Below are positions 21,001-33,512 of a DNA stretch of 64,000 nucleotides, one piece after another. Position 1 is the stretch's first letter. Each line of letters starts with the position of its first letter. The stretch comes from Escherichia coli (GTDB lineage Bacteria; Pseudomonadota; Gammaproteobacteria; Enterobacterales; Enterobacteriaceae), in NCBI RefSeq assembly GCF_003018255.1, contig NZ_CP027440.1; one strand, written 5' to 3'. The position numbers and the translations under genes are program-made. Under the pieces are notes generated by a model that was given only the letters and a program-made list of their open reading frames with translations, was not told the origin of the DNA and made no database searches.

Positions 21001-21813
21001 CCCAAACCAAACAAAAGCGATGATGAATTACAGGCGAACAATGCTGTTAACCGCTACAAATTGCTGAAAAAAGATGCGCGTACCGTCGCCGCCCAGCAGG
21101 TAGCAAGGCTGGAATCCGCCATGTGCCTGCGTCGCCGCTGGTCACCGGAAAACTTTCAGCTCTTCCTGGTTGAGCATCCGCTGGTCCGCCACTTAACCCG
21201 CCGTCTGATTTGGGGCGTTTATAGCGCCGAAAACCAGCTACTGGCTTGCTTTCGCGTAGCGGAAGATAACAGCTACAGCACCGCTGACGATGATCTTTTC
21301 ACCCTGCCGGAAGGCGATATCTCTATTGGTATTCCTCACGTTCTGGAAATATCACCGACGGATGCTGCCGCCTTCGGGCAGCTTTTTGCCGACTACGAAC
21401 TGTTACCACCGTTCCGCCAGCTTGATCGTAACAGTTACGCGCTGACAGAAGCCGAGCGCAATGCCAGCGAACTGACACGCTGGGCAGGCAGAAAATGCCC
21501 GAGTGGTCGGGTAATGGGGCTGGCAAATAAAGGCTGGATGCGTGGTGAACCGCAGGACGGTGGCTGGATCGGCTGGATGATCAAACCTCTGGGCCGCTGG
21601 TCGTTAATCATGGAAATCGATGAAGGTTTTGCGGTCGGCATGTCGCCAGCCGAACTCAGTGCCGAGCAACTCTTAAGCAAGCTGTGGCTATGGGAAGGCA
21701 AAGCGGAAAGCTATGGCTGGGGGAGTAATTCAACACAGGAAGCGCAGTTCTCCGTACTCGATGCCATCACCGCCAGCGAGCTAATTAACGATATTGAAGC
21801 CCTGTTTGAATAA
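18025..21813 (+). CDS. molR: Giant uncharacterised protein with N-terminal WGR-like domain (DUF4132 family); intact here
   Basis: Uninterrupted 1262-aa ORF with ATG at 18025; N-terminus MRHFIYQDEKSHKFWAVEQQGNELHINWGKVGTNGQ resembles a WGR domain; paralogous to the next ORF. Confidence 0.75.
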   Translation: MRHFIYQDEKSHKFWAVEQQGNELHINWGKVGTNGQSQVKSFADAAAAEKAGLKLIAEKVKKGYVEQAKDNSLQPSQTVTDSLKVADLSTIIQEQPSFVAETRAADKNTDAVLPWLAKDIAVVFPPEVVHTTLSHRRFPGVPVQQADKLTQLRRLACSVSQRDNKTATFDFSACSLEWQNTVAQAISQIDGLKTTQLPSPVMAVLTALEMKCTRYKEREDVMDQIIQEGGLEYATDVIIHLQQISIEWDYVNNNIVFLSSGISPDYLQQYSSFELRLRKHLSLAEESLWQKCAQKLIAAIPHIPEWRQPLIALLLPEKPEIAHEISQRLLGQKKLPSLEWLKIVATDEHILASLEKYHEPYAIFDDYYCGAIWSATVLQEQGVTALPRFAPYAASDYCADVLRHINHPFALTLLIRVAGHTKRCHDRMTKACAAFPHAALAALAELLVQKEENSWRIMLMTMLISHPTLAEQVIPWLSTPAVAVLKSCQQQLTQPSNHASADLLPAIVVSPPWLSKKKKSPIPVLDLAPLNLESICTITDTEAKEFQTHWDWEPHKPSEGAKNFLYSLGYRRWDFDTYKYIGASDSAIDAWEREDFATLIQMFKAHHAPYQGEWHLNSLPFLPMQKAIKLWEFLSKEPHTAIKPVMLYLRLAGMSGFLHSFSRYPQEGFAVANYFAATELAPAVARAFNKLKTLRQDASSWLLKYPEHAITGLLPAALGKASEAQDNARAALRMLTENGHQPLLQEIARRYNQPEVTDAVNALLALDALDNHPTKIPTLPTFYQPSLWTRPLLKANAQSLPDSALLHLGEMLRFPQEEALYPGLLQVKDACTTDSLAEFAWDLFTAWQTAGAPSKESWAFTALGVLGNDDTARKLTPLIRAWPGESQHKRATVGLDILAAIGSDIALMQLNGIAQKLKFKALQERAKEKIADIAESRELTVAELEDRLAPDLGLDDNGSLLLDFGPRQFTVSFDETLKPFVRDASGSRLKDLPKPNKSDDELQANNAVNRYKLLKKDARTVAAQQVARLESAMCLRRRWSPENFQLFLVEHPLVRHLTRRLIWGVYSAENQLLACFRVAEDNSYSTADDDLFTLPEGDISIGIPHVLEISPTDAAAFGQLFADYELLPPFRQLDRNSYALTEAERNASELTRWAGRKCPSGRVMGLANKGWMRGEPQDGGWIGWMIKPLGRWSLIMEIDEGFAVGMSPAELSAEQLLSKLWLWEGKAESYGWGSNSTQEAQFSVLDAITASELINDIEALFE

Positions 21814-21822
21814 GGAAAGAGC

Positions 21823-24800
21823 ATGGACAAGGAATTACCGTGGCTGGCGGATAACGCCCAACTGGAACTGAAATATAAAAAAGGCAAAACACCACTCAGC
21901 CATCGCAATTGGCCAGGCGAACCGGTACCTGTTATCACTGAAAACATCATTCAGACACTGGGTGATGAATTGCTACAAAAAGCAGAGAAGAAAAAAAACA
22001 TTGTCTGGCGTTATGAAAACTTTTCACTGGAGTGGCAGTCCGCCATCACGCAGGCCATCAACTTGATCGGCGAACACAAACCCTCAATCACGGCCCGGAC
22101 AATGGCGGCGCTAGCCTGTATCGCGCAAAATGATAGCCAACAGTTGCTCGACGAAATCGTCCAACACGAGGGGCTGGAATATGCAACTGAGGTGGTGATT
22201 GCACGCCAGTTTATTGTACGGTGTTATGAGAGTGATCCTCTGGTAGTAACATTGCAATATCAGAACGAGGACTATGGCTATGGTTATCGCTCAGAAACCT
22301 ATAACGAATTCGATCTCCGATTGCGTAAGCATCTCTCTCTGGCAGAGGAAAGCTGCTGGCAGCGTTGCGCCGACAAACTCATTGCCGCACTGCCAGGAAT
22401 AACCAAAGTTCGCCGCCCTTTTATTGCGCTGAACCTCCCGGAAAAACCCGAAATCGCCAACGAGCTGGTAAGCCTTGAATGTTCGCAAACTCATTTTCGC
22501 TCAAAAGAGTGGTTAAAAGTTGTTGCTGATGACCCTAAGGCGGTGAAAGAACTCGCACGTTACTGGAGCCAGGATATATTTAGCGATCGAGAAGCCAGCT
22601 ACATGTCGCATGAAAACCACTTCGGCTACGCGGCCTGCGCTGCCCTTTTGCGCGAACAAGGACTGGCAGCCGTTCCGCGCCTCGCGATGTATGCACATAA
22701 AGAAGATTGCGGCAGTCTGCTGGTACAAATTAACCATCCGCAAGTCATCCGCACCTTGCTACTGGTGGCTGATAAAAACAAACCCAGCCTGCAACGTGTG
22801 GCTAAATACAGTAAAAACTTCCCCCATGCGACGCTCGCCGCACTGGCAGAACTGCTGGCGTTAAAAGCCCCCCCTGCGCGCCCTGGTTATCCCATCATCG
22901 AAGACCAAAAGCTGCCTGCACAGCAAAAAGCACGTGATGAATACTGGCATACGCTGTTACAAACGCTGATGGCATCGCAGCCACAACTGGCAGAAGAGGT
23001 GATGCCGTGGTTAAGTACTCAAGCCCGGGCAGTGCTGAATAGTTATTTATCGGCACCGCCCAAAACGGTTATTGATAGCACCGATAACAGCCAAATGCCT
23101 GAAATCCTCGTTTCACCACCGTGGCGTAGTAAGAAAAAAATGACAGCTCCACGTCTTGATTTGGCACCGCTCGAATTAACCCCGCAAGTTTACTGGCAAC
23201 CAGGCGAACAAGAGAGGCTTGCCTCCACTGAGTCTGCCCGTTATTTCAGCACGGAATCTCTTGCTGAACGCATGGAACAAAAAAGTGGACGAGTTGTATT
23301 ACAGGAACTGGGTTTTGGGGATGATGTATGGCTGTTTCTGAATTATATACTCCCCGGAAAACTGGATGCTGCACGCAATTCACTCATTGTTCAGTGGCAT
23401 TACTACCCAGGGCGGGTTGAAGAGATCATGAATGGCTGGAGCTCCCCGGAAGCTCAATTAGCAGAACAGGCGCTTCGCAGCGGTCACGTAGAAGTGTTAA
23501 TTAACATATGGGAAAATGACAGCTACTCACGTTATCGTCCGGAAAAGAGTGTCTGGAACCTGTATTTATTGGCACAGTTGCCGCGTGAGATGGCTTTGCC
23601 TTTCTGGCTACGTATCAATGAGAAAAAGCATCTGTCTGCGGGTGAGGACTATTTTCTCAGTATCTTCGGATTGGATGCTCTACCAGGTCTGCTGTTGGCT
23701 TTTTCACATCGTCCAAAAGAAACATTTCCGTTAATTTTAAATTTTGGCGCAACAGAACTGGCCCTGCCCGTTGCCCGCGTCTGGCGACGTTTCGCGGCGC
23801 AGCGTGATCTGGCCCGCCAGTGGATTTTACAATGGCCGGAACATACGGCTACTGCACTTATCCCTCTTGTCTTCACCAAACCCAGCGATAATAGCGAAGC
23901 TGCATTACTTGCCCTACGTTTACTTTACGAACAGGGACATGGTGAATTGCTGCAAACCGCGGCAAACCGCTGGCAGCGTACAGATGTATGGCCTGCCCTG
24001 GAGCATTTACTTAAACAGAGTCCAATAGAGATTTACCCGGCACGCATGCCAAAAGCCCCTGATTTCTGGCATCCGCTAATGTGGTCCAGGCCGCGCCTAA
24101 TCATTAATCATCAACTTATTACCGATGACGCTCTGGAAATTATCGGCGAAATGCTGCGCTTTACCCAGGGGGGACGTTTTCATAGCGGGCTGGAACAACT
24201 GAAAACGTTCTGCCAGCCGCAAACGCTGGCAGCTTTTGCCTGGGATCTCTTCACTGCGTGGCAACAAGCTGGTGCCCCCGCAAAAGACAACTGGGCATTT
24301 CTGGCGTTAAGTCTCTTTGGTGACGAAAGCACGGCACGGGATCTAACGACACAGATCCTCGCCTGGCCACAAGAAGGCAAATCTACCCGTGCTGTCAGTG
24401 GCCTGAACATCCTTACCCTGATGAATAATGATATGGCGCTGATACAGCTGCATCATATATCGCAACGGGCGAAATCCCGCCCCTTACGTGATAACGCGGC
24501 GGAATTTCTTCAGGTGGTCGCAGAAAATCGCGGGCTAAGCCAGGAAGAGTTAGCGGACAGATTAGTCCCAACACTGGGCCTTGATGATCCGCAGGCGTTG
24601 AGTTTTGATTTTGGTCCCCGGCAGTTTACCGTTCGCTTCGATGAAAACCTTAACCCGGTTATCTTTGATCAGCAAAACGTTCGCCAGAAAAGCGTTCCCC
24701 GGTTGCGCACCGATGACGATCAACTGAAAGCGCCCGAGGCACTGGCCCGATTAAAAGGGCTAAAAAAAGATACGACTCAGGTGAGCAAAAACCTGCTCCC

Positions 24801-25455
24801 CCGTCTTGAAGCTGCCCTGCGTACCACCCGACGCTGGTCGCTGGCAGATTTTCATTCTCTGTTTGTTAATCATCCCTTTACCCGTCTGGTTACCCAGCGA
24901 TTAATATGGGGCGTGTATCCGGCAAATGAACCGCGTCGTTTACTCAACGCCTTTCGTGTGGCCGCAGAGGGGGAGTTCTGCAATGCGCAAGATGAGCCCA
25001 TTGACCTGCCTGCGGATGCTCTGATTGGCATTGCCCACCCGTTAGAAATGACAGAAGGAATGCGCAGTGAATTTGCACAGCTTTTTGCCGATTACGAAAT
25101 TATGCCGCCTTTTCGCCAGTTGGCGCGGCGCACGGTGCTGCTCACACCTGACGAGTCAACCAGTAACAGCCTGACTCGCTGGGAAGGTAAATCCGCTACC
25201 GTTGGGCAGCTTATGGGAATGCGATACAAAGGCTGGGAGTCAGGCTATGAGGACGCATTTGTCTATGGCCTGGGCGAGTACCGGCTGGTCCTTAAGTTTT
25301 CACCCGGTTTTAACCACTACAATGTTGATAGCAAAGCGTTAATGAGCTTCCGTTCTCTTCGAGTGTACCGTGACAATAAATCCGTCACTTTTGCCGAACT
25401 TGATGTGTTTGATTTGAGTGAGGCGTTAAGCGCACCTGACGTCATTTTCCATTAA
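21823..25455 (+). CDS. yehI: Giant uncharacterised protein (DUF4132 family), paralog of molR without the WGR-like N-terminus
   Basis: 1210-aa ORF sharing several motifs with the molR product (FDLRLRKHLSLAEES, AWDLFTAWQ.AGAP, RLIWGVY). Confidence 0.75.
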   Translation: MDKELPWLADNAQLELKYKKGKTPLSHRNWPGEPVPVITENIIQTLGDELLQKAEKKKNIVWRYENFSLEWQSAITQAINLIGEHKPSITARTMAALACIAQNDSQQLLDEIVQHEGLEYATEVVIARQFIVRCYESDPLVVTLQYQNEDYGYGYRSETYNEFDLRLRKHLSLAEESCWQRCADKLIAALPGITKVRRPFIALNLPEKPEIANELVSLECSQTHFRSKEWLKVVADDPKAVKELARYWSQDIFSDREASYMSHENHFGYAACAALLREQGLAAVPRLAMYAHKEDCGSLLVQINHPQVIRTLLLVADKNKPSLQRVAKYSKNFPHATLAALAELLALKAPPARPGYPIIEDQKLPAQQKARDEYWHTLLQTLMASQPQLAEEVMPWLSTQARAVLNSYLSAPPKTVIDSTDNSQMPEILVSPPWRSKKKMTAPRLDLAPLELTPQVYWQPGEQERLASTESARYFSTESLAERMEQKSGRVVLQELGFGDDVWLFLNYILPGKLDAARNSLIVQWHYYPGRVEEIMNGWSSPEAQLAEQALRSGHVEVLINIWENDSYSRYRPEKSVWNLYLLAQLPREMALPFWLRINEKKHLSAGEDYFLSIFGLDALPGLLLAFSHRPKETFPLILNFGATELALPVARVWRRFAAQRDLARQWILQWPEHTATALIPLVFTKPSDNSEAALLALRLLYEQGHGELLQTAANRWQRTDVWPALEHLLKQSPIEIYPARMPKAPDFWHPLMWSRPRLIINHQLITDDALEIIGEMLRFTQGGRFHSGLEQLKTFCQPQTLAAFAWDLFTAWQQAGAPAKDNWAFLALSLFGDESTARDLTTQILAWPQEGKSTRAVSGLNILTLMNNDMALIQLHHISQRAKSRPLRDNAAEFLQVVAENRGLSQEELADRLVPTLGLDDPQALSFDFGPRQFTVRFDENLNPVIFDQQNVRQKSVPRLRTDDDQLKAPEALARLKGLKKDTTQVSKNLLPRLEAALRTTRRWSLADFHSLFVNHPFTRLVTQRLIWGVYPANEPRRLLNAFRVAAEGEFCNAQDEPIDLPADALIGIAHPLEMTEGMRSEFAQLFADYEIMPPFRQLARRTVLLTPDESTSNSLTRWEGKSATVGQLMGMRYKGWESGYEDAFVYGLGEYRLVLKFSPGFNHYNVDSKALMSFRSLRVYRDNKSVTFAELDVFDLSEALSAPDVIFH

Positions 25456-25516: not shown

Positions 25517-25870
25517 ATGATCGTGCAAAAAGAGCTGGTTGCTATTTACGATTATGAGGTCCCTGTACCTGAAGATCCGTTTTCCTTCAGACTTGAGATC
25601 CATAAATGCTCTGAATTATTTACAGGTTCCGTCTATCGACTGGAGCGATTCCGGCTACGTCCAACATTTCATCAACGTGATCGAGAAGATGCTGACCCGC
25701 TAATAAATGATGCGTTGATTTATATAAGAGATGAGTGTATTGATGAGCGGAAATTACGAGGTGAATCACCTGAAACTGTAATAGCAATTTTTAATCGTAA
25801 ACTACAGAATATATTCAACCAACTAATAGAATATTACTTTATTAAAGGGGGAAGCGGTTTTCCCCCTTAG
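25517..25870 (+). CDS. yehK: Small uncharacterised protein
   Basis: 117-aa ORF on the track; true start uncertain (I recall the K-12 product as shorter); stop codon lies inside the hairpin that begins the first zor repeat. Confidence 0.5.
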   Translation: MIVQKELVAIYDYEVPVPEDPFSFRLEIHKCSELFTGSVYRLERFRLRPTFHQRDREDADPLINDALIYIRDECIDERKLRGESPETVIAIFNRKLQNIFNQLIEYYFIKGGSGFPP

Positions 25871-25889
25871 TTGCGTTTCAATTTGCCCA

Positions 25890-25979
25890 TTACTTCAACA
25901 AATCAATCAACCGTAACAGAGCCACTAATAGCTCCAGTACAGCAATGAGCACGGTTAACTTTTGTGTCAGCGTGTCCAT
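25890..25979 (-). CDS. zorO: Type I toxin small hydrophobic peptide, 29 aa (ZorO-like)
   Basis: Minus-strand ATG..TAA encodes MDTLTQKLTVLIAVLELLVALLRLIDLLK; AAGGAG SD 5 nt upstream; long 5' UTR; flanking hairpin terminator; too short for the ORF track. Confidence 0.7.
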   Translation of the reverse strand: MDTLTQKLTVLIAVLELLVALLRLIDLLK

Positions 25980-26217
25980 CCGCTCTCCTTATTAAGGAGC
26001 GCAACACCAGCACCTTACCCTTACACTGCCTGTCGACACTGGTTTACGTTTGTTGAGTCGCCATGTTGCACTCCGGATCAGAGCACTACCTGCGGCACCA
26101 CCCGTCCGGTAGCCAGGACTTGAAATGGGTTCGATCCGGCGCAACTTCCCAACAGTCAGGATTATAAATCTCATTATCTTAATTGCAACACGGTCCAGCG
26201 GTGGTTATAATTCGTTC

Positions 26218-26300
26218 GTTGAGATGCCATGTTGCACTATCAGTAACTTAACATCAAAGTAGTAAATAAAAGAACCTGCCTCACCAGCAGGTTCTTTTAT
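26218..26300 (+). ncRNA. orzO: Divergent antitoxin sRNA (OrzO-like), about 80 nt
   Basis: Consensus-like promoter TTGCAA-17-TATAAT (26183..26211), then a transcript ending at hairpin gaacctgc-ctcaccagc-gcaggttc plus T-run; 5' end gttgagatgccatgttgcact is complementary to the toxin 5' UTR (26053..26073). Confidence 0.6.
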
Positions 26301-26497
26301 TTTCTGCGATCTACTTTCCAGATATTTTTCGCCAATAGCCCACCATAAATATTCACATCCCGGCCAAATAGTACGTTGATTATAAAATCGATGAATTTAT
26401 AAATAAAAATGAGTTATATGATGAATTAATAAAAACAGTAATCATTTTATTAAAGGGGGAAACGGTATTCCCCCTTAGATGCGTTTCAATTTGCCCG

Positions 26498-26587
26498 TTA
26501 CTTCAACAAATCAATCAACCGTAACAGAGCCACTAATAGCTCCAGTACAGCAATGAGCACGGTTAACTTTTGTGTCAGCGTGTCCAT
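26498..26587 (-). CDS. zorP: Type I toxin small hydrophobic peptide, 29 aa, second copy (ZorP-like)
   Basis: Coding sequence identical to copy 1 (same 29-aa peptide), same SD and terminator hairpin. Confidence 0.7.
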   Translation of the reverse strand: MDTLTQKLTVLIAVLELLVALLRLIDLLK

Positions 26588-26825
26588 CCGCTCTCCTTAT
26601 TAAGGAGCGCAACACCAGCACCTTACCCTTACACTGCCTGTCGATACTGGTTTACGTATGTTGGTACGAAACGTTGCTCTCCGGATCAGGGCACCGCCTG
26701 CGGCACCACCCGTCCAGCAGCCAGGACTTAAAATTGGTCCGATCCGGCACAACCTCCCAACGGGCAGGATTATAAATCTCATTCACTGAATTGCAATGGA
26801 GTGTGGATATGGTTATAATTTATTC

Positions 26826-26908
26826 GTTGGTACGAAATGTTGCACAATCAGCAAGTTAGCGTCATTGTAGTAAATAAAAGAACCTGCCTCACCAGCAGGT
26901 TTTTTTAT
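26826..26908 (+). ncRNA. orzP: Divergent antitoxin sRNA, second copy (OrzP-like)
   Basis: Promoter TTGCAA-17-TATAAT (26791..26819); 5' segment gttggtacgaaatgttgcaca is complementary to the copy-2 toxin UTR (26661..26681); same terminator hairpin. Confidence 0.6.
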
Positions 26909-27017
26909 TTACTGTGATCTGCTTTCCAGATATTTTTCGCTCAAACAACTAATGCGGCAAACATTTATTGCGCGTAAAATATCGTTTATTTCATTAATAC
27001 ATTTCAGGGATGAATAT

Positions 27018-28106
27018 ATGTCACCGCAGAATAATCATCTGCAGCGTCCGCCTGCCGCTGTGTTATACGCCGATGAACTGGCAAAATTAAAACAAAATGA
27101 TCACGCACCTTGCCCGCCCGGTTGGCAGTTAAGTTTGCCTGCGGCCCGCGCTTTTATCCTTGGCGATAGCGCGCAAAATATTAGCCGTAAAGTCGTGATC
27201 AGTCCCTCCGCTGTCGAACGCATGTTAGTCACTCTCGCTACCGGGCGCGGTTTGATGTTGGTGGGGGAACCTGGCACCGCAAAATCGCTCCTGTCTGAAT
27301 TACTGGCAACCGCTATTAGCGGCGATGCCGGGTTAACCATCCAGGGCGGCGCATCTACCACCGAAGATCAAATCAAGTACGGCTGGAACTACGCCCTGCT
27401 TATCAACCATGGTCCGTCAACGGAAGCGCTGGTCCCTGCCCCGCTTTACCAGGGAATGCGCGACGGCAAAATTGTCCGTTTTGAAGAGATAACGCGTACA
27501 CCGCTGGAAGTACAAGACTGTCTGTTAGGTATGCTTTCTGACAGGGTAATGACGGTGCCGGAACTCACCGGTGAAGCCAGTCAGCTCTATGCGCGAGAAG
27601 GCTTTAATATTATTGCCACTGCCAATACCCGCGATCGCGGCGTCAATGAGATGAGTGCCGCGCTAAAGCGTCGCTTCGATTTTGAAACCGTCTTTCCGAT
27701 TATGGATTTCGCCCAGGAGCTGGAACTGGTCGCCAGTGCTTCGGCGCGTTTGCTGGCCCATAGCGGTATTCCGCATAAAGTGCCTGACGCGGTACTGGAG
27801 TTACTGGTCCGCACCTTCCGCGATCTGCGTGCCAACGGCGAAAAGAAAACGTCAATGGATACCCTGACGGCAATTATGTCCACCGCTGAAGCCGTGAACG
27901 TGGCCCACGCAGTGGGCGTCCGCGCCTGGTTTTTAGCGAATCGCGCAGGTGAGCCAGCCGATCTGGTGGACTGTATTGCCGGAACCATCGTCAAAGATAA
28001 CGAAGAAGATCGCGCTCGTCTGCGCCGTTACTTCGAACAGCGAGTCGCCACACATAAAGAAGCTCACTGGCAGGCTTATTATCAAGCTCGCCACCGCCTG
28101 CCGTGA
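27018..28106 (+). CDS. yehL: MoxR-family AAA+ ATPase (YehL subfamily)
   Basis: Start set at the internal Met (MSPQNNHLQRP; GGGA RBS) within ORF 26952..28106, giving 362 aa; Walker A GEPGTAKS. Confidence 0.85.
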   Translation: MSPQNNHLQRPPAAVLYADELAKLKQNDHAPCPPGWQLSLPAARAFILGDSAQNISRKVVISPSAVERMLVTLATGRGLMLVGEPGTAKSLLSELLATAISGDAGLTIQGGASTTEDQIKYGWNYALLINHGPSTEALVPAPLYQGMRDGKIVRFEEITRTPLEVQDCLLGMLSDRVMTVPELTGEASQLYAREGFNIIATANTRDRGVNEMSAALKRRFDFETVFPIMDFAQELELVASASARLLAHSGIPHKVPDAVLELLVRTFRDLRANGEKKTSMDTLTAIMSTAEAVNVAHAVGVRAWFLANRAGEPADLVDCIAGTIVKDNEEDRARLRRYFEQRVATHKEAHWQAYYQARHRLP

Positions 28107-28116
28107 GGAAAGATGC

Positions 28117-30396
28117 ATGAGCGAGCCGTTAATTGTCGGCATCCGGCATCATAGTCCGGCCTGCGCCCGGCTGGTGAAATCGTTAATCGAAAGCCAGCGG
28201 CCACGATACGTGTTGATTGAAGGCCCGGCTGATTTTAATGACCGGGTAGACGAACTGTTTTTAGCCCACCAGCTTCCGGTAGCTATTTACAGTTATTGCC
28301 AGTATCAGGACGGTGCAGCCCCCGGGCGTGGTGCCTGGACGCCATATGCTGAATTTTCGCCGGAGTGGCAGGCGCTACAAGCCGCTCGTCGTATTCAGGC
28401 ACAAACTTACTTCATCGATTTGCCTTGCTGGGCGCAGAGTGAAGAAGAGGACGATTCGCCTGATACGCAAGAGGAAAGCCAGACCTTGCTGCTGCGTGCC
28501 ACCCGCATGGATAACAGCGACACCCTGTGGGATCACTTGTTCGAAGATGAAAGCCAGCAAACTGCATTACCCTCTGCACTGGCGCACTATTTTGCACAAC
28601 TGCGGGGCGATTCCCCCGGAGATGCTCTCAATCGTCAGCGCGAAGACTTTATGGCCCGCTGGATTGGTTGGGCGATGCAGCAAAACAATGGCGACGTGTT
28701 AGTCGTCTGCGGTGGCTGGCACGCTTCTGCACTGGCAAAAATGTGGCGCGAATGCCCGCAGGAAATTAACACGCCGGAATTGCCCTCGCTGGCAGATGCC
28801 GTTACAGGTTGTTATCTCACCCCCTACAGTGAAAAGCGCCTTGATGTGCTGGCAGGATACCTTTCCGGTATGCCTGCCCCGGTCTGGCAAAACTGGTGCT
28901 GGCGGTGGGGCTTGCAGCAGGCAGGTGAACAACTGCTGAAAACGGTTCTTACCCGTTTGCGCCAGCACCACTTGCCTGCTTCAACAGCGGATATGGCTGC
29001 CGCTCATCTGCATGCGATGGCACTGGCACAGTTGCGTGGTCATACACTACCGTTACGCACTGACTGGCTGGATGCCATAGCAGGCTCGCTGATTAAAGAA
29101 GCCCTGAATGCGCCGTTGCCGTGGAGCTATCGCGGCGTTATTCATCCCGATACCGATCCGATTCTGCTAACGTTGATAGACACATTAGCGGGTGACGGAT
29201 TCGGTAAACTTGCCCCCTCTACGCCACAGCCGCCTCTGCCAAAAGATGTCACCTGCGAACTGGAACGTACAGGAATCTCTTTTCCGGCGGAGCTTACTTT
29301 AAATCGCTTTACCCCCGATGGACTGGCGCAAAGTCAGGTGTTACATCGGCTGGTAATACTGGAGATCCCAGGGGTTGTGCGCCAGCAGGGAAGTACACTG
29401 ACACTTGCAGGCAACGGTGAAGAACGCTGGAAATTAACCCGCCCGCTTAGCCAACATGCGGCATTAATTGAGGCCGCCTGCTTTGGTGCCACACTCCAGG
29501 AAGCCGCACGCAATAAATTAGAAGCCGATATGCTGGACGCGGGTGGAATCGGCAGTATCACCACATGTCTTAGCCAGGCGGCGTTAGCGGGTCTGGCGTC
29601 CTTCAATCAACAATTACTGGAGCAACTCACATTATTAATCGCCCAGGAAAATCAGTTTGCCGAAATGGGCCAGGCGCTGGAAGTGCTATATGCCTTATGG
29701 CGGCTGGATGAAATTAGCGGTATGCAGGGCGCGCAGATATTACAAACGACATTATGCGCGGCCATCGATCGCACGCTGTGGCTATGTGAATCCAACGGCA
29801 GACCGGATGAAAAGGAGTTTCACGCTCACCTGCATAGCTGGCAAGCGCTTTGCCATATCCTGCGCGATCTACATAGCGGCGTTAATTTACCCGGCGTTTC
29901 TCTTTCTGCGGCGGTAGCCTTACTGGAGCGACGCAGTCAGGCGATTCATGCCCCGGCGCTGGATCGCGGCGCGGCACTTGGCGCACTGATGCGTCTGGAA
30001 CATCCCAACGCCAGTGCCGAAGCGGCGCTGACAATGCTGGTGCAATTATCCCCGACACAATCCGGCGAGGCGCTGCACGGTTTGCTGGCATTAGCCCGTC
30101 ATCAACTGGCCTGTCAGCCGGTATTTATCGCCGGTTTCAGCAGTCATTTAAATCAACTGAGTGATGCCGATTTTATCAATGCCCTGCCCGATTTACGCGC
30201 GGCGATGGCCTGGCTACCACCACGAGAACGCGGGACGCTGGCGCATCAGGTGCTTGAGCATTATCAACTGGTGCAACTTCCCGTTTCGGCACTGCAAATG
30301 CCGTTGCATTGTCCACCACAAGACATTGCACATCATCAACAACTCGAACAGCAGGCACTGGCATCGCTGCAACACTGGGGAGTTTTCCATGTCTGA
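28117..30396 (+). CDS. yehM: Large uncharacterised protein encoded between MoxR ATPase and VWA genes
   Basis: Start set at the internal Met (MSEPLIVGIRHHSPACARLV; GAGGAA RBS) for 759 aa; begins 10 nt after the yehL stop. Confidence 0.8.
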   Translation: MSEPLIVGIRHHSPACARLVKSLIESQRPRYVLIEGPADFNDRVDELFLAHQLPVAIYSYCQYQDGAAPGRGAWTPYAEFSPEWQALQAARRIQAQTYFIDLPCWAQSEEEDDSPDTQEESQTLLLRATRMDNSDTLWDHLFEDESQQTALPSALAHYFAQLRGDSPGDALNRQREDFMARWIGWAMQQNNGDVLVVCGGWHASALAKMWRECPQEINTPELPSLADAVTGCYLTPYSEKRLDVLAGYLSGMPAPVWQNWCWRWGLQQAGEQLLKTVLTRLRQHHLPASTADMAAAHLHAMALAQLRGHTLPLRTDWLDAIAGSLIKEALNAPLPWSYRGVIHPDTDPILLTLIDTLAGDGFGKLAPSTPQPPLPKDVTCELERTGISFPAELTLNRFTPDGLAQSQVLHRLVILEIPGVVRQQGSTLTLAGNGEERWKLTRPLSQHAALIEAACFGATLQEAARNKLEADMLDAGGIGSITTCLSQAALAGLASFNQQLLEQLTLLIAQENQFAEMGQALEVLYALWRLDEISGMQGAQILQTTLCAAIDRTLWLCESNGRPDEKEFHAHLHSWQALCHILRDLHSGVNLPGVSLSAAVALLERRSQAIHAPALDRGAALGALMRLEHPNASAEAALTMLVQLSPTQSGEALHGLLALARHQLACQPVFIAGFSSHLNQLSDADFINALPDLRAAMAWLPPRERGTLAHQVLEHYQLVQLPVSALQMPLHCPPQDIAHHQQLEQQALASLQHWGVFHV

Positions 30397-31525
30397 ACTG
30401 AACGATCTTCTGACCACCCGTGAGCTACAACGCTGGCGATTAATTCTTGGCGAAGCGGCAGAAACGACGCTTTGTGGGCTGGATGACAACGCCCGGCAGA
30501 TAGACCACGCGATGGAGTGGCTGTATGGGCACGATCCTGAACGGTTCCAGCGTGGTGAACGCTCCGGTGGATTAGGTTGCTCAAATCTCACCCCCCCTGA
30601 GTGGATCAACAGTATTCACACGCTGTTTCCGCAACAGGTGATTGAACGGCTGGAAAGCGATGCCGTACTGCGCTACGGCATTGAAGATGTGGTGACGAAT
30701 CTCGACGTGCTGGAACGTATGCAACCGTCTGAAAGCCTGCTACGCGCCGTTTTGCACACCAAACATCTGATGAATCCCGAAGTACTGGCTGCCGCCCGCC
30801 GGATAGTACGCCAGGTTGTTGAAGAAATTATGGCTCGACTGGCAAAGGAAGTTCGTCAGGCTTTTTCTGGTGTCCGCGATCGCCGCCGTCGCTCATTTAT
30901 TCCACTGGCGCGTAATTTCGATTTCAAAAGTACGCTGCGTGCCAACCTGCAACACTGGCATCCGCAACACGGCAAGTTGTATATCGAATCCCCCCGCTTT
31001 AACAGCCGCATTAAGCGCCATAGCGATCAATGGCAACTGGTCTTACTGGTTGATCAAAGCGGATCGATGGTTGACTCGGTGATCCACTCAGCGGTGATGG
31101 CGGCCTGTTTATGGCAGTTACCCGGCATTCGTACCCATCTGGTGGCGTTTGACACCAGCGTGGTTGATCTCACGGCAGACGTTGCCGATCCGGTAGAGTT
31201 ATTAATGAAAGTACAACTGGGCGGCGGGACCAATATCGCCAGTGCCGTGGAGTATGGTCGGCAACTTATTGAACAACCTGCAAAAAGTGTCATTATCCTC
31301 GTGAGCGATTTCTATGAAGGTGGTTCATCATCATTGCTGACGCATCAGGTGAAAAAGTGTGTCCAGAGCGGCATCAAAGTGCTGGGACTGGCGGCGCTCG
31401 ATAGCACCGCAACACCTTGCTATGACCGCGATATGGCCCAGGCACTGGTTAATGTCGGTGCACAAATAGCCGCCATGACGCCGGGCGAACTGGCGACCTG
31501 GCTTGCGGAGAATCTTCAGTCATGA
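30389..31525 (+). CDS. yehP: von Willebrand factor A (VWA) domain protein
   Basis: Start set at the internal Met (MSELNDLLTT) for 378 aa; MIDAS-like motif LLVDQSGSM; overlaps the yehM stop by 8 nt. Confidence 0.8.
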   Translation: MSELNDLLTTRELQRWRLILGEAAETTLCGLDDNARQIDHAMEWLYGHDPERFQRGERSGGLGCSNLTPPEWINSIHTLFPQQVIERLESDAVLRYGIEDVVTNLDVLERMQPSESLLRAVLHTKHLMNPEVLAAARRIVRQVVEEIMARLAKEVRQAFSGVRDRRRRSFIPLARNFDFKSTLRANLQHWHPQHGKLYIESPRFNSRIKRHSDQWQLVLLVDQSGSMVDSVIHSAVMAACLWQLPGIRTHLVAFDTSVVDLTADVADPVELLMKVQLGGGTNIASAVEYGRQLIEQPAKSVIILVSDFYEGGSSSLLTHQVKKCVQSGIKVLGLAALDSTATPCYDRDMAQALVNVGAQIAAMTPGELATWLAENLQS

Positions 31526-33512
31526 ATTCACTACGTCCGGAATTATTAGAACTGACACCACAGGCACTGACGGCGTTAAGCAATGCCGGTTTTGTTAAGC
31601 GCAGCCTTAAAGAACTGGAAAATGGCAACGTCCCGGAAATCAGTCATGAGAACGGCGCTTTAATCGCCACCTTCAGTGACGGTGTCCGCACCCAGCTGGC
31701 GAACGGCCAGGCACTGAAAGAGGCTCAGTGCAGCTGCGGGGCCAGCGGCATGTGCCGCCATCGCGTGATGCTGGTTTTAAGTTATCAGCGACTTTGCGCC
31801 ACCACCCAGCCTACGGAAAAAGAAGAAGAGTGGGATCCGGCAATCTGGCTGGAAGAACTGGCTACCCTGCCCGATGCCACCCGCAAACGCGCACAGGCGC
31901 TGGTCGCTAAAGGCATCACCATTGAGTTGTTCTGTACGCCGGGCGAAATTCCCTCTGCCCGCTTACCGATGAGCGATGTACGTTTTTATTCCCGCAGCAG
32001 CATTCGTTTCGCTCGCTGTGATTGTATTGACGGCACACTTTGCGAACATGTCGTACTGGCTGTGCAGGCCTTCGTCGAGGCCAAAACTCAGCAAGCGGAA
32101 TTTACTCATTTAATCTGGCAGATGCGCAGCGAACACGTCACATCATCTGACGATCCGTTTGCCAGCGAAGAGGGCAACGCGTGTCGTCAATATGTTCAGC
32201 AATTAAGTCAGGCATTATGGCTGGGCGGCATCAGCCAGCCGCCAATCCATTACGAGGCCGCTTTCAGCCGCGCACAGCAGGCGGCGGAACGCTGCAACTG
32301 GCGATGGGTGAGTGAATCGCTACGGCAACTGCGCGCCAGCGTTGATGCCTTCCACGCCCGCGCCAGCCACTATCATGCCGGAAAATGCTTGTGCCAGCTT
32401 GCGGCGTTAACCAGTCGCTTGAACAGTGCACAAGAGATAGCGCGACGTGACAGTGTCGGTGAAGTACCGCCCATGCCGTGGCGCACGGTCGTTGGCTCTG
32501 GCATTGCCGGAGAAGCAAAGCTTGATCATCTGCGGCTGGTGTCTTTAGGTATGCGTTGCTGGCAGGATATTGAGCATTATGGTTTACCGATCCCGACACC
32601 GGCAGTATTTTGCATCTTTCGCGTAGTTGGCCGAGAAGCGAACAGGAAAACTCACCGGCAGCGACGCGTCGGCTGTTTAGTTTTCAGGCTGGCGCACTGG
32701 CGGGCGGGCAAATTGTTTCACAAGCAGCAAAACGCAGTGCCGATGGCGAGCTGCTGTTAGCTACCCGCAACCGCTTAAGCAGCGTTGTGCCGCTGTCGCC
32801 TGATGCCTGGCAAATGTTGAGCGCGCCGTTACGCCAGCCGGGCATTGTGGCTTTGCGGGAATATTTACGCCAGCGTCCCCCCGCCTGCATACGGCCTCTT
32901 AATCAGGTCGATAACTTATTTATTCTGCCGGTCGCTGAGTGTATTTCGCTCGGTTGGGATAGCAGCCGCCAGACGCTGGATGCGCAGGTAATCAGCGGCG
33001 AAGGTGAAGATAATCTGCTGACGTTATCACTGCCAGCCTCAGCCAGCGCGCCTTATGCCGTTGAACGCATGGCGGCGCTTTTGCAACAAACAGACGACCC
33101 CGTGTGTCTGGTTTCTGGCTTTGTCAGCTTTGTAGAGGGGCAATTGACACTGGAACCACAGGTAATGATGACAAAGACTCGTGCCTGGGCGCTGGACGCA
33201 GAAACTGCGCCTGTGGTGGCATCACTACCTTCTGCCAGCGTTCTGCCTGTGCCGTCTACTGCTCATCAGTTGCTGATGCGCTGCCAGGCGTTACTTATTC
33301 AACTGCTCCATAACGGCTGGCGCTATCAGGAACATAGTGCTATTGGTCAGGCAGAGTTGCTGGCGAATGACCTCACCGCGGTGGGTTTTTATCGGCTGGC
33401 ACATGTGTTGGGACAATTTCGTAATACAGAAAGCGAGGCACGGGTAGAAGCAATGAATAACGGTGTTTTGCTGTGCGAACAATTATTCCCCATGCTTCAG
33501 CAACAAGGATGA
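31522..33512 (+). pseudogene. yehQ: SWIM zinc-finger protein gene split by a frameshift
   Basis: ATG at 31522 overlaps the yehP stop (ATGA); two CxC...CxH SWIM-like motifs (QCSCGASGMCRH, RCDCIDGTLCEH); the reading frame 31522..32760 switches to the frame 32610..33512 within about 32575..32650. Confidence 0.6.

Follow-up and report, generated by a model that had tools for sequence, protein, structure and literature searches.

Pairs made of a MoxR-type AAA+ ATPase and a protein with a von Willebrand factor type A (VWA) domain are widespread, yet few of them have a known client. In RavA-ViaA, CoxD-CoxE, NorQ-NorD and CbbQ-CbbO, a MoxR/AAA_5 ATPase is encoded beside a VWA protein with an intact metal-ion-dependent adhesion site (MIDAS), and the genes are translationally coupled. 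A kindred logic, combining AAA_5 modules, a MIDAS domain and a long helical scaffold, is found in midasin (Rea1), a single chain of 4700-4900 residues with six AAA modules that strips assembly factors from pre-60S particles. Further systems couple MoxR and vWA proteins to a beta-propeller (Pfam bpMoxR, PF20030), and these ternary systems are reportedly the vWA-MoxR conflict systems of the Aravind laboratory. In the classification of Snider and Houry, as cited elsewhere, YehL is the type member of a 'YehL subfamily', one of seven MoxR subfamilies (PMC3893208). The uncharacterised MoxR-VWA operon to which YehL belongs, yehLMPQ, is therefore already known: it is annotated and a subfamily bears its name (PMC3893208). 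Here we consider this operon in a 64,000-nt stretch of Escherichia coli DNA (contig NZ_CP027440.1; the window, in whose coordinates all positions are given unless a locus identifier is stated), and we find that the true unit comprises five families, one of them that of the SOS gene molR. We favour, tentatively and with slightly less than even confidence, the view that yehLMPQ together with one or more WGR-DUF4132 proteins is a DNA-damage-induced, DNA-associated AAA+/MIDAS remodelling machine.

Set against the described pairs, the yeh module has the same core of an ATPase and a VWA protein with coupled genes, but it co-encodes no client enzyme, is tied to proteins of the DUF5682, SWIM/OB and WGR-DUF4132 types, and lies behind damage promoters. 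With midasin, which provides some of the closest solved relatives of YehL, it has the AAA_5, MIDAS and helical-scaffold logic in common, whereas its parts are separate proteins, save where YehM and YehP are fused. The bpMoxR systems are similar in their MoxR-VWA core, their extra large partners and their patchy distribution; however, YehL matches bpMoxR at E 0.0021 against 2.6e-34 for AAA_5, and the yeh module has neither a beta-propeller nor a VMAP-type partner. Its parts in the window are as follows.

18000..18015, plus strand: CTGGATAAAATTACAG, a LexA-box-like site read from the sequence, its last base 10 nt 5' of the yehH ATG
18025..21813, plus strand: yehH (molR), 1262 aa and intact here, a WGR domain followed by a long helical region and DUF4132; first gene of the module
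21823..25455, plus strand: yehI, 1210 aa, a yehH paralogue with DUF4132 and without WGR
27018..28106, plus strand: yehL, 362 aa, a MoxR-type AAA+ ATPase (AAA_5)
28117..30396, plus strand: yehM, 759 aa, DUF5682, modelled as a TraB/ChaN-like N-terminal domain (residues ~1-240) and a HEAT-like helical body
30389..31525, plus strand: yehP, 378 aa, a CoxE-type VWA protein with an intact MIDAS motif
31522..33512, plus strand: yehQ, modelled with a tandem OB-like fold and helical bundles beside its two SWIM fingers; frameshifted here

An earlier note, made from the letters of this stretch, had placed the open reading frames of yehL, yehM and yehP and the start of yehQ where we find them, and had read the junctions exactly: a 10-nt gap between yehL and yehM, an 8-nt overlap between yehM and yehP, and an ATGA overlap between yehP and yehQ. 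It was also right that WGR/DUF4132 giants, yehH and yehI, stand upstream. Conservation was surveyed in one genome per species over 100,044 species with YehM peptide patterns, which gave at least 543 confirmed relatives, of which the best 80 loci were kept; the neighbourhood counts cover 82 loci, from Gamma- and Betaproteobacteria, Myxococcota, Actinobacteria and an acidobacterial metagenome-assembled genome, and rest on iterated profile searches with seven E. coli proteins against the six-frame open reading frames of the loci. Homologues of YehL, YehM, YehP and YehQ follow one another in a single order and on one strand in 78 of the 82, so that the co-conservation check proposed in the note was passed strongly; within these 78, a 4-nt overlap joins yehM to yehP in 54 loci and yehP to yehQ in 59. 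Two of the four exceptions (L022 and L030) end at contig edges. The other two (L037 and L042), both deltaproteobacterial metagenome-assembled genomes, have yehL, yehM and yehP, and no YehQ was detected there though the sequence runs on past yehP; they may represent a reduced or divergent variant of the module. These two loci are also without a WGR/DUF4132 gene upstream.

In 68 of the 82 loci the gene immediately before the yehL homologue is yehH/I-like and shares its strand; two Burkholderia loci have such a gene downstream, and Escherichia has it upstream with an insertion ahead of yehL. These large genes usually come as one to three tandem copies per locus. The tight, conserved operon of the earlier note thus holds, whereas the WGR/DUF4132 genes that it took for neighbours of a four-gene unit belong to that unit in at least 70 of the 82 loci. 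Independent gene calls with Pfam labels give a matching architecture in Variovorax, in a Rhodanobacteraceae genome and in Lentzea. When the other flanking reading frames were clustered over the 82 loci, no family was common to different genera; since the five families alone are co-conserved and their contexts differ, the unit consists of these five families and has passed as a block from one genomic context to another. Gene order and reading frames show them to be co-conserved in order and translationally coupled in at least five phyla. The constraint is uneven, with a median identity to the E. coli proteins of 65% for YehL and 60% for YehP, against 41% for YehH, 39% for YehM, 33% for YehI and 30% for YehQ: as judged from these alignments, the motor is highly constrained and its partner proteins diverge. 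A small gene lying between the WGR-DUF4132 and AAA_5 genes of Variovorax was set aside, as it is not conserved elsewhere. Four betaproteobacterial loci hold 0.8-1.6 kb of extra sequence between otherwise overlapping genes (yehM-yehP in L026, L027 and L028, yehP-yehQ in L082), which may be inserted elements.

The identities of the ATPase and of its VWA partner, as first proposed, are borne out. YehL matches Pfam AAA_5 (2.6e-34) and, weakly, AAA_3; its Walker A (GEPGTAKS), Walker B (RFEE), TAN and NTRD/RR motifs are invariant in 34 orthologues, and in a sequence search of the Protein Data Bank (PDB) its nearest solved relatives are AAA domains of midasin (E 3e-10), along with the MoxR structure 2r44. 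YehP matches VWA_CoxE (2.1e-71), and the MIDAS residues D222-x-S224-x-S226, T256 and D307 are invariant among the orthologues aligned. In NCBIfam, YehL has a weak match to GvpN (4.7e-8) and YehP one to cobaltochelatase (1.5e-3), both far under the curated cut-offs. With yehP two genes 3' of yehL in 78 of the 82 loci, the VWA gene stands where the partner of a MoxR ATPase is expected. The same searches of the PDB gave no relative for YehM, YehQ, YehI or YehP. As a separate matter, yehP carries at 31247-31262 a +1 programmed-frameshift cassette, GTGGAGTATGGTCGGC, unchanged from the published one (FSscan, PMC2790909); a shift there would yield a 303-aa product without the C-terminal part of the VWA domain.

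YehM, which had been described as having no obvious domain, matches Pfam DUF5682 (5e-95). Its structural model (predicted local distance difference test score, pLDDT, 87.6; predicted template-modelling score, pTM, 0.83) shows an alpha/beta domain at ~1-240 followed by a long helical repeat region, and in the model the N-terminal domain shares the alpha/beta fold of the TraB/Tiki/ChaN/EreA-like superfamily. Invariant residues gather at G8, R10 and H11 after strand 1, at E35 at the end of strand 2, and at G199, G200 and H202 at a later strand-helix junction; H11, E35 and H202, which sit at strand ends, may occupy the His, Glu and His positions of TraB/Tiki-type proteins. YehM differs from the TraB/PrgY/GumN/Tiki/ChaN/erythromycin-esterase-like proteins in that ~500 residues of helical repeats are joined to the domain, and it shows no profile link to them: its N-terminal profile found no TraB/ChaN match in PDB or NCBIfam, and Pfam yields DUF5682 only. 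Among 1.84 billion cluster representatives a profile search retrieved 3982 proteins with DUF5682, and 1466 scored E <= 1e-30. At least four representatives (P0227, P0240, P0243 and P0253), 1169-1222 aa long and in separate 50%-identity clusters, are fusions of DUF5682 to VWA_CoxE, and in both contigs examined the fusion gene sits between AAA_5 and YehQ-like genes (L086 10001-13540; L087 3096-6764). These natural YehM-YehP fusions make it very likely that the two proteins act together physically. No WGR/DUF4132 gene lies near the fusion in L086.

The two SWIM motifs that had been read in YehQ are both matched in Pfam, at residues 56-88 (E 9.7e-4, about 1e-3) and 160-183 (E 0.12), and in the first, of the form CxCxnCxH, C70, C72, C78 and H80 are invariant. 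The model of an intact allele (pLDDT 91.1, pTM 0.87) places a pair of beta-barrels at residues ~331-560, besides the SWIM region and two helical bundles, one of them C-terminal. The top Foldseek matches are Ifi202 HINa with double-stranded DNA, baculovirus LEF-3, RPA70 DBD-A/B with single-stranded DNA, archaeal RPA, the MNDA HIN domain, CST and POT1. The central region is thus modelled as two barrels matching the tandem OB modules of RPA70 DBD-A/B and HIN-200 proteins, at marginal Foldseek E values (2e-3 to ~0.1) and with no sequence similarity to tandem OB binders, which is suggestive, not proof, of DNA binding by YehQ through a tandem OB-like fold. With YehM, this provides candidate folds, of the hydrolase and DNA-binding types respectively, for two proteins that had been listed as unknown. 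In YehH, Pfam finds WGR at 6-69 (5.6e-18) and DUF4132 at 986-1171 (1.5e-51); YehI, 37% identical to YehH over ~1180 aa, matches DUF4132 only (2.6e-46).

In the window, CTGGATAAAATTACAG has one mismatch to CTGT-N8-ACAG, which makes it LexA-box-like; no exact match to that consensus was found in the window, and the metG terminator (17894-17917) lies just 5' of the site. It is known that molR figures among the LexA-regulated genes with a known SOS box (PMC6590174). In Deinococcus radiodurans, DdrO operator motifs accompany DRA0166 (DUF4132) and DR2173 (WGR), and mitomycin C induces both in a manner that depends on IrrE (PMC8533742). In Actinobacteria the damage regulator PafBC recognizes promoters with the consensus tGTCgg(N10)tA(N3)T (PMC8635444), also given as tTGTCRgtg-8nt-TAnnnT (P1; PMC5656591, supplement). 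Scanning 37 actinobacterial loci (1.54 Mb with both strands counted) for exact TGTC[AG]G-N10-TA-N3-T gave 25 matches, all 25 on the strand of the cluster. Of these, 23 fall in the 250 nt that precede a yehH/I-like gene or yehL, although such stretches account for 1.7% of what was scanned (binomial P ~1e-38). Such an upstream site occurs in 21 of the 37 loci. In L059, which is without a yehH/I gene, the motif precedes yehL itself, and in Streptomyces (L077) 56 nt separate the end of the motif with its -10 element from the GTG of a WGR protein. Three damage regulators in three phyla, LexA, PafBC and DdrO, thus touch the WGR/DUF4132 families, and in Actinobacteria the whole module; the tie to DNA-damage regulons extends to Actinobacteria, E. 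coli and Deinococcus, in the latter for the WGR and DUF4132 families only. The actinobacterial LexA box GAAC-N4-GTTC gave scattered matches, not placed upstream of the cluster; a recurring CTGGGGCGACATGCAG, considered as a proteobacterial LexA site, lies inside coding sequence; and Mycobacterium smegmatis MSMEG_5511 ('von Willebrand factor, type A'), which is PafBC-dependent with a P1 motif (PMC5656591, Table S1), could not be linked to YehP.

We now turn to how such a machine might work. The yehLMPQ genes would encode its motor half, in a module made of the [WGR-DUF4132]n proteins, YehL, YehM, YehP and YehQ. The WGR domain of YehH-like proteins and the OB/SWIM region of YehQ would position the complex by binding to DNA that is damaged or single-stranded; the MIDAS of YehP would grip a partner or client and couple it to the YehL ring, by analogy with other MoxR-VWA pairs and with midasin; and ATP hydrolysis would then drive the remodelling or extraction of a substrate, either protein or nucleoprotein. 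YehM might provide the scaffold through its HEAT-like body, and its TraB/ChaN-like domain, with the invariant His, Glu and His, would hydrolyse something or bind a ligand. To be sure, a number of points weigh against this. The lack of a profile match means that the TraB/ChaN link of YehM depends on the fold. In the other proteobacterial loci no LexA box was found upstream of the module and no motif is enriched there; in E. coli the LexA-like box stands at yehH, and yehK with the toxin-antitoxin insertion parts yehI from yehL. The searchable literature yielded no published experiment on damage induction of yehLMPQ itself, the published induction data that were located being those on molR (SOS gene list, PMC6590174) and on the Deinococcus WGR/DUF4132 proteins (PMC8533742). 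Other inputs are on record: the yehH promoter is activated by BglJ-RcsB (PMC3950696), and in K-12 H-NS binds upstream of yehL, and yehL and yehM, which answer to H-NS/StpA through an intergenic region of their own, rise in hns/stpA mutants (PMC3686432). Finally, independent inactivating lesions in K-12, in the window and in ST131 L1a imply that the system is dispensable there.

The lesion of the window is in yehQ, which the earlier note had read as a single open reading frame over 31522-33512. That reading fails: the span of 1991 nt is not a multiple of three and cannot be one reading frame. Alignment to the intact allele of the best-matching genome shows that 13 bp are missing at 32579/32580, between direct repeats TGGTTTAC, and this deletion breaks the frame. 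The intact allele of the closest genomes encodes 667 aa; here the frame stops at 32760, after 412 aa, and the rest (32610-33512, 300 codons) lies in a different frame. In the window yehQ is a frameshifted pseudogene, and the machine is for that reason probably disabled in the strain. The span of the operon in all ten of the closest complete genomes differs from the 6495 bp found here, so that none appears to carry the deletion, which is either strain-specific or a sequencing error. A probe across the deletion junction gave no tally of sharers, as BLAST joined both flanks in every genome. In K-12 MG1655, a nonsense codon (...AIGQA*) truncates yehQ (L083 15101-16945), so that the last 52 residues of the 667-aa allele are lost, and yehH (L083 2475-6270) is split into yehF and a pseudogene; in ST131 L1a the resistance transposon TnMB1860 is inserted in the DUF4132 region (PMC9334617). 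As a result K-12, with yehH disrupted and yehQ truncated, makes a poor background for phenotyping, the window's strain is likewise unsuitable with its frameshifted yehQ, and genome-wide screens in K-12 may have been uninformative on this cluster.

Such lesions raise the question of whether the cluster in E. coli, and in this window especially, was acquired horizontally and has since been silenced and left to decay, so that it now does nothing and its tight junctions were inherited and not maintained. Besides the frameshift here, the two defective K-12 genes, the ST131 transposon and the repression of yehL and yehM by H-NS (PMC3686432), the reduced-genome strain DGF-298 has the whole region deleted without harm (listed in PMC10652928), and the operon has a G+C content of 54-57% against 43-52% in its flanks. 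Decay is a real possibility for E. coli, but we find it unlikely: all four yehLMPQ genes are intact in the closest genomes, the catalytic motifs are intact in yehL, yehM and yehP of the window, Escherichia species keep 90-99% identity along the whole length of each protein, and in other phyla the module is plainly constrained. A conflict system against phages or mobile elements would account for some of the same facts, with the WGR/DUF4132 paralogues sensing the invader, the MoxR-VWA motor triggering YehM as a putative hydrolase, and the damage promoters arming the system at prophage induction. It would fit tandem WGR/DUF4132 genes, one to three in number, that diverge fast (median identity 33-41% against 60-65% for the motor proteins), a patchy distribution whose genus-specific contexts imply horizontal transfer as a unit, silencing by H-NS in K-12 (PMC3686432), a locus that takes insertions such as the zor/orz toxin-antitoxin unit and TnMB1860 (PMC9334617), and frequent lineage-specific loss; in some bacteria DNA-damage regulators are reported to control defence networks too (PMC12392091). 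We regard it as unlikely, though well worth a hearing, because none of YehH, YehI, YehK, YehL, YehM, YehP and YehQ matched any of 5027 PADLOC models (PADLOC-DB 2.0.0) at E <= 0.01, no recognizable toxic effector (nuclease, NADase or pore) is found in the module, and no defence genes recur in the flanks of the 82 loci. Moreover, of 5426 complete E. coli genomes, 5362 have a match to the locus in an unchanged chromosomal position, which makes it core and not accessory. Where the earlier note left the choice between stress, remodelling and conflict, the promoters, the PADLOC result and the core locus favour a DNA-damage response over phage defence. Matches to PHROGs families of unknown function (30700, 33984, 31592, 29006, 20839, 36602 and 36295) were discounted as a sign of phage origin; they are full-length and near-identical to YehH, YehI, YehK, YehM, YehP and YehQ, with E near 0, and these families were probably seeded from a prophage prediction overrunning into the yeh locus.

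A metabolic role has also to be weighed, in which the module would be a chaperone for cofactor insertion or maturation, like CoxD/CoxE, NorQ/NorD, CbbQ/CbbO or the Mg/Co chelatases, loading a metal or cofactor into YehH, YehI or YehM. The old label of molR, 'molybdate metabolism regulator', would fit; VWA_CoxE is the best Pfam family of YehP, with its invariant DxSxS, T and D; YehL falls in the AAA_5 group with CbbQ, NorQ and GvpN; ChaN, a fold neighbour of YehM, binds haem; and characterized MoxR systems mature particular enzyme complexes (PMC3893208). However, no enzyme gene is co-conserved in the flanks of the 82 loci or appears in the Pfam-labelled neighbourhoods, the NCBIfam scores for GvpN and cobaltochelatase fall far below the curated cut-offs, and K-12, in which molR is disrupted, still makes molybdoenzymes. 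In the Deinococcus study, expression of moeA and moeB did not change (PMC8533742). Since it would also leave the WGR, SWIM and OB domains and the damage promoters unexplained, we give this role very little probability. The favoured reading, that of a damage-induced remodelling machine, can be pushed further, to a bacterial machine of DNA-damage repair or tolerance in which a midasin-like motor, brought to lesions by WGR and SWIM/OB sensors, would extract proteins trapped on DNA or cleave them by the TraB/Tiki-like domain of YehM. This is a bold extension which we hold to be quite improbable. If true, the module would be a functional analogue of eukaryotic DNA-protein crosslink repair by p97/Cdc48-SPRTN/Wss1, and it would have been overlooked in E. 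coli since K-12 has defective yehH and yehQ alleles.

No assigned function for yehL, yehM, yehP or yehQ was found in the searchable literature, as the earlier note had supposed; in the full texts searched DUF5682 is not mentioned, and DUF4132 is mentioned in four papers, with no functional study found. For the five-family module, its PafBC promoters, the YehM-YehP fusions and the fold assignments, no prior description was found in the literature searched, which may miss some papers. With the unit now defined, the question of its role becomes directly testable.

Around the module, the genes of the window run metG, yehH, yehI, yehK, two toxin-antitoxin units, yehL, yehM, yehP, yehQ and yehR, with yehS and btsRS beyond yehR on the opposite strand. 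The interval from yehI to yehL holds yehK and a toxin-antitoxin system that is present twice.

25517..25870, plus strand: yehK, a 117-aa open reading frame found in Escherichia only
25870-27000: two tandem type I toxin-antitoxin units of the zorO/orzO type, with Rfam OrzO-P at 26225-26298 and 26833-26906

For yehK, jackhmmer found homologues only in the Escherichia loci L001, L003 and L004, and there was no match in Pfam, NCBIfam or PADLOC; given this Escherichia-only distribution, the gene probably stands outside the conserved module. Two neighbours of other loci may be recorded as anecdotal: in a Rhodanobacteraceae genome a gene of the uracil-DNA glycosylase (UDG) family (L084 72-752) stops 50 nt before the first WGR-DUF4132 gene, and in Variovorax (L002) recJ lies ~1.6 kb upstream of the module. 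Each toxin-antitoxin copy of the window scores ~90 bits for OrzO-P and has consensus-like divergent promoters; both copies are absent in K-12, where the gap between yehK and yehL is 306 nt.

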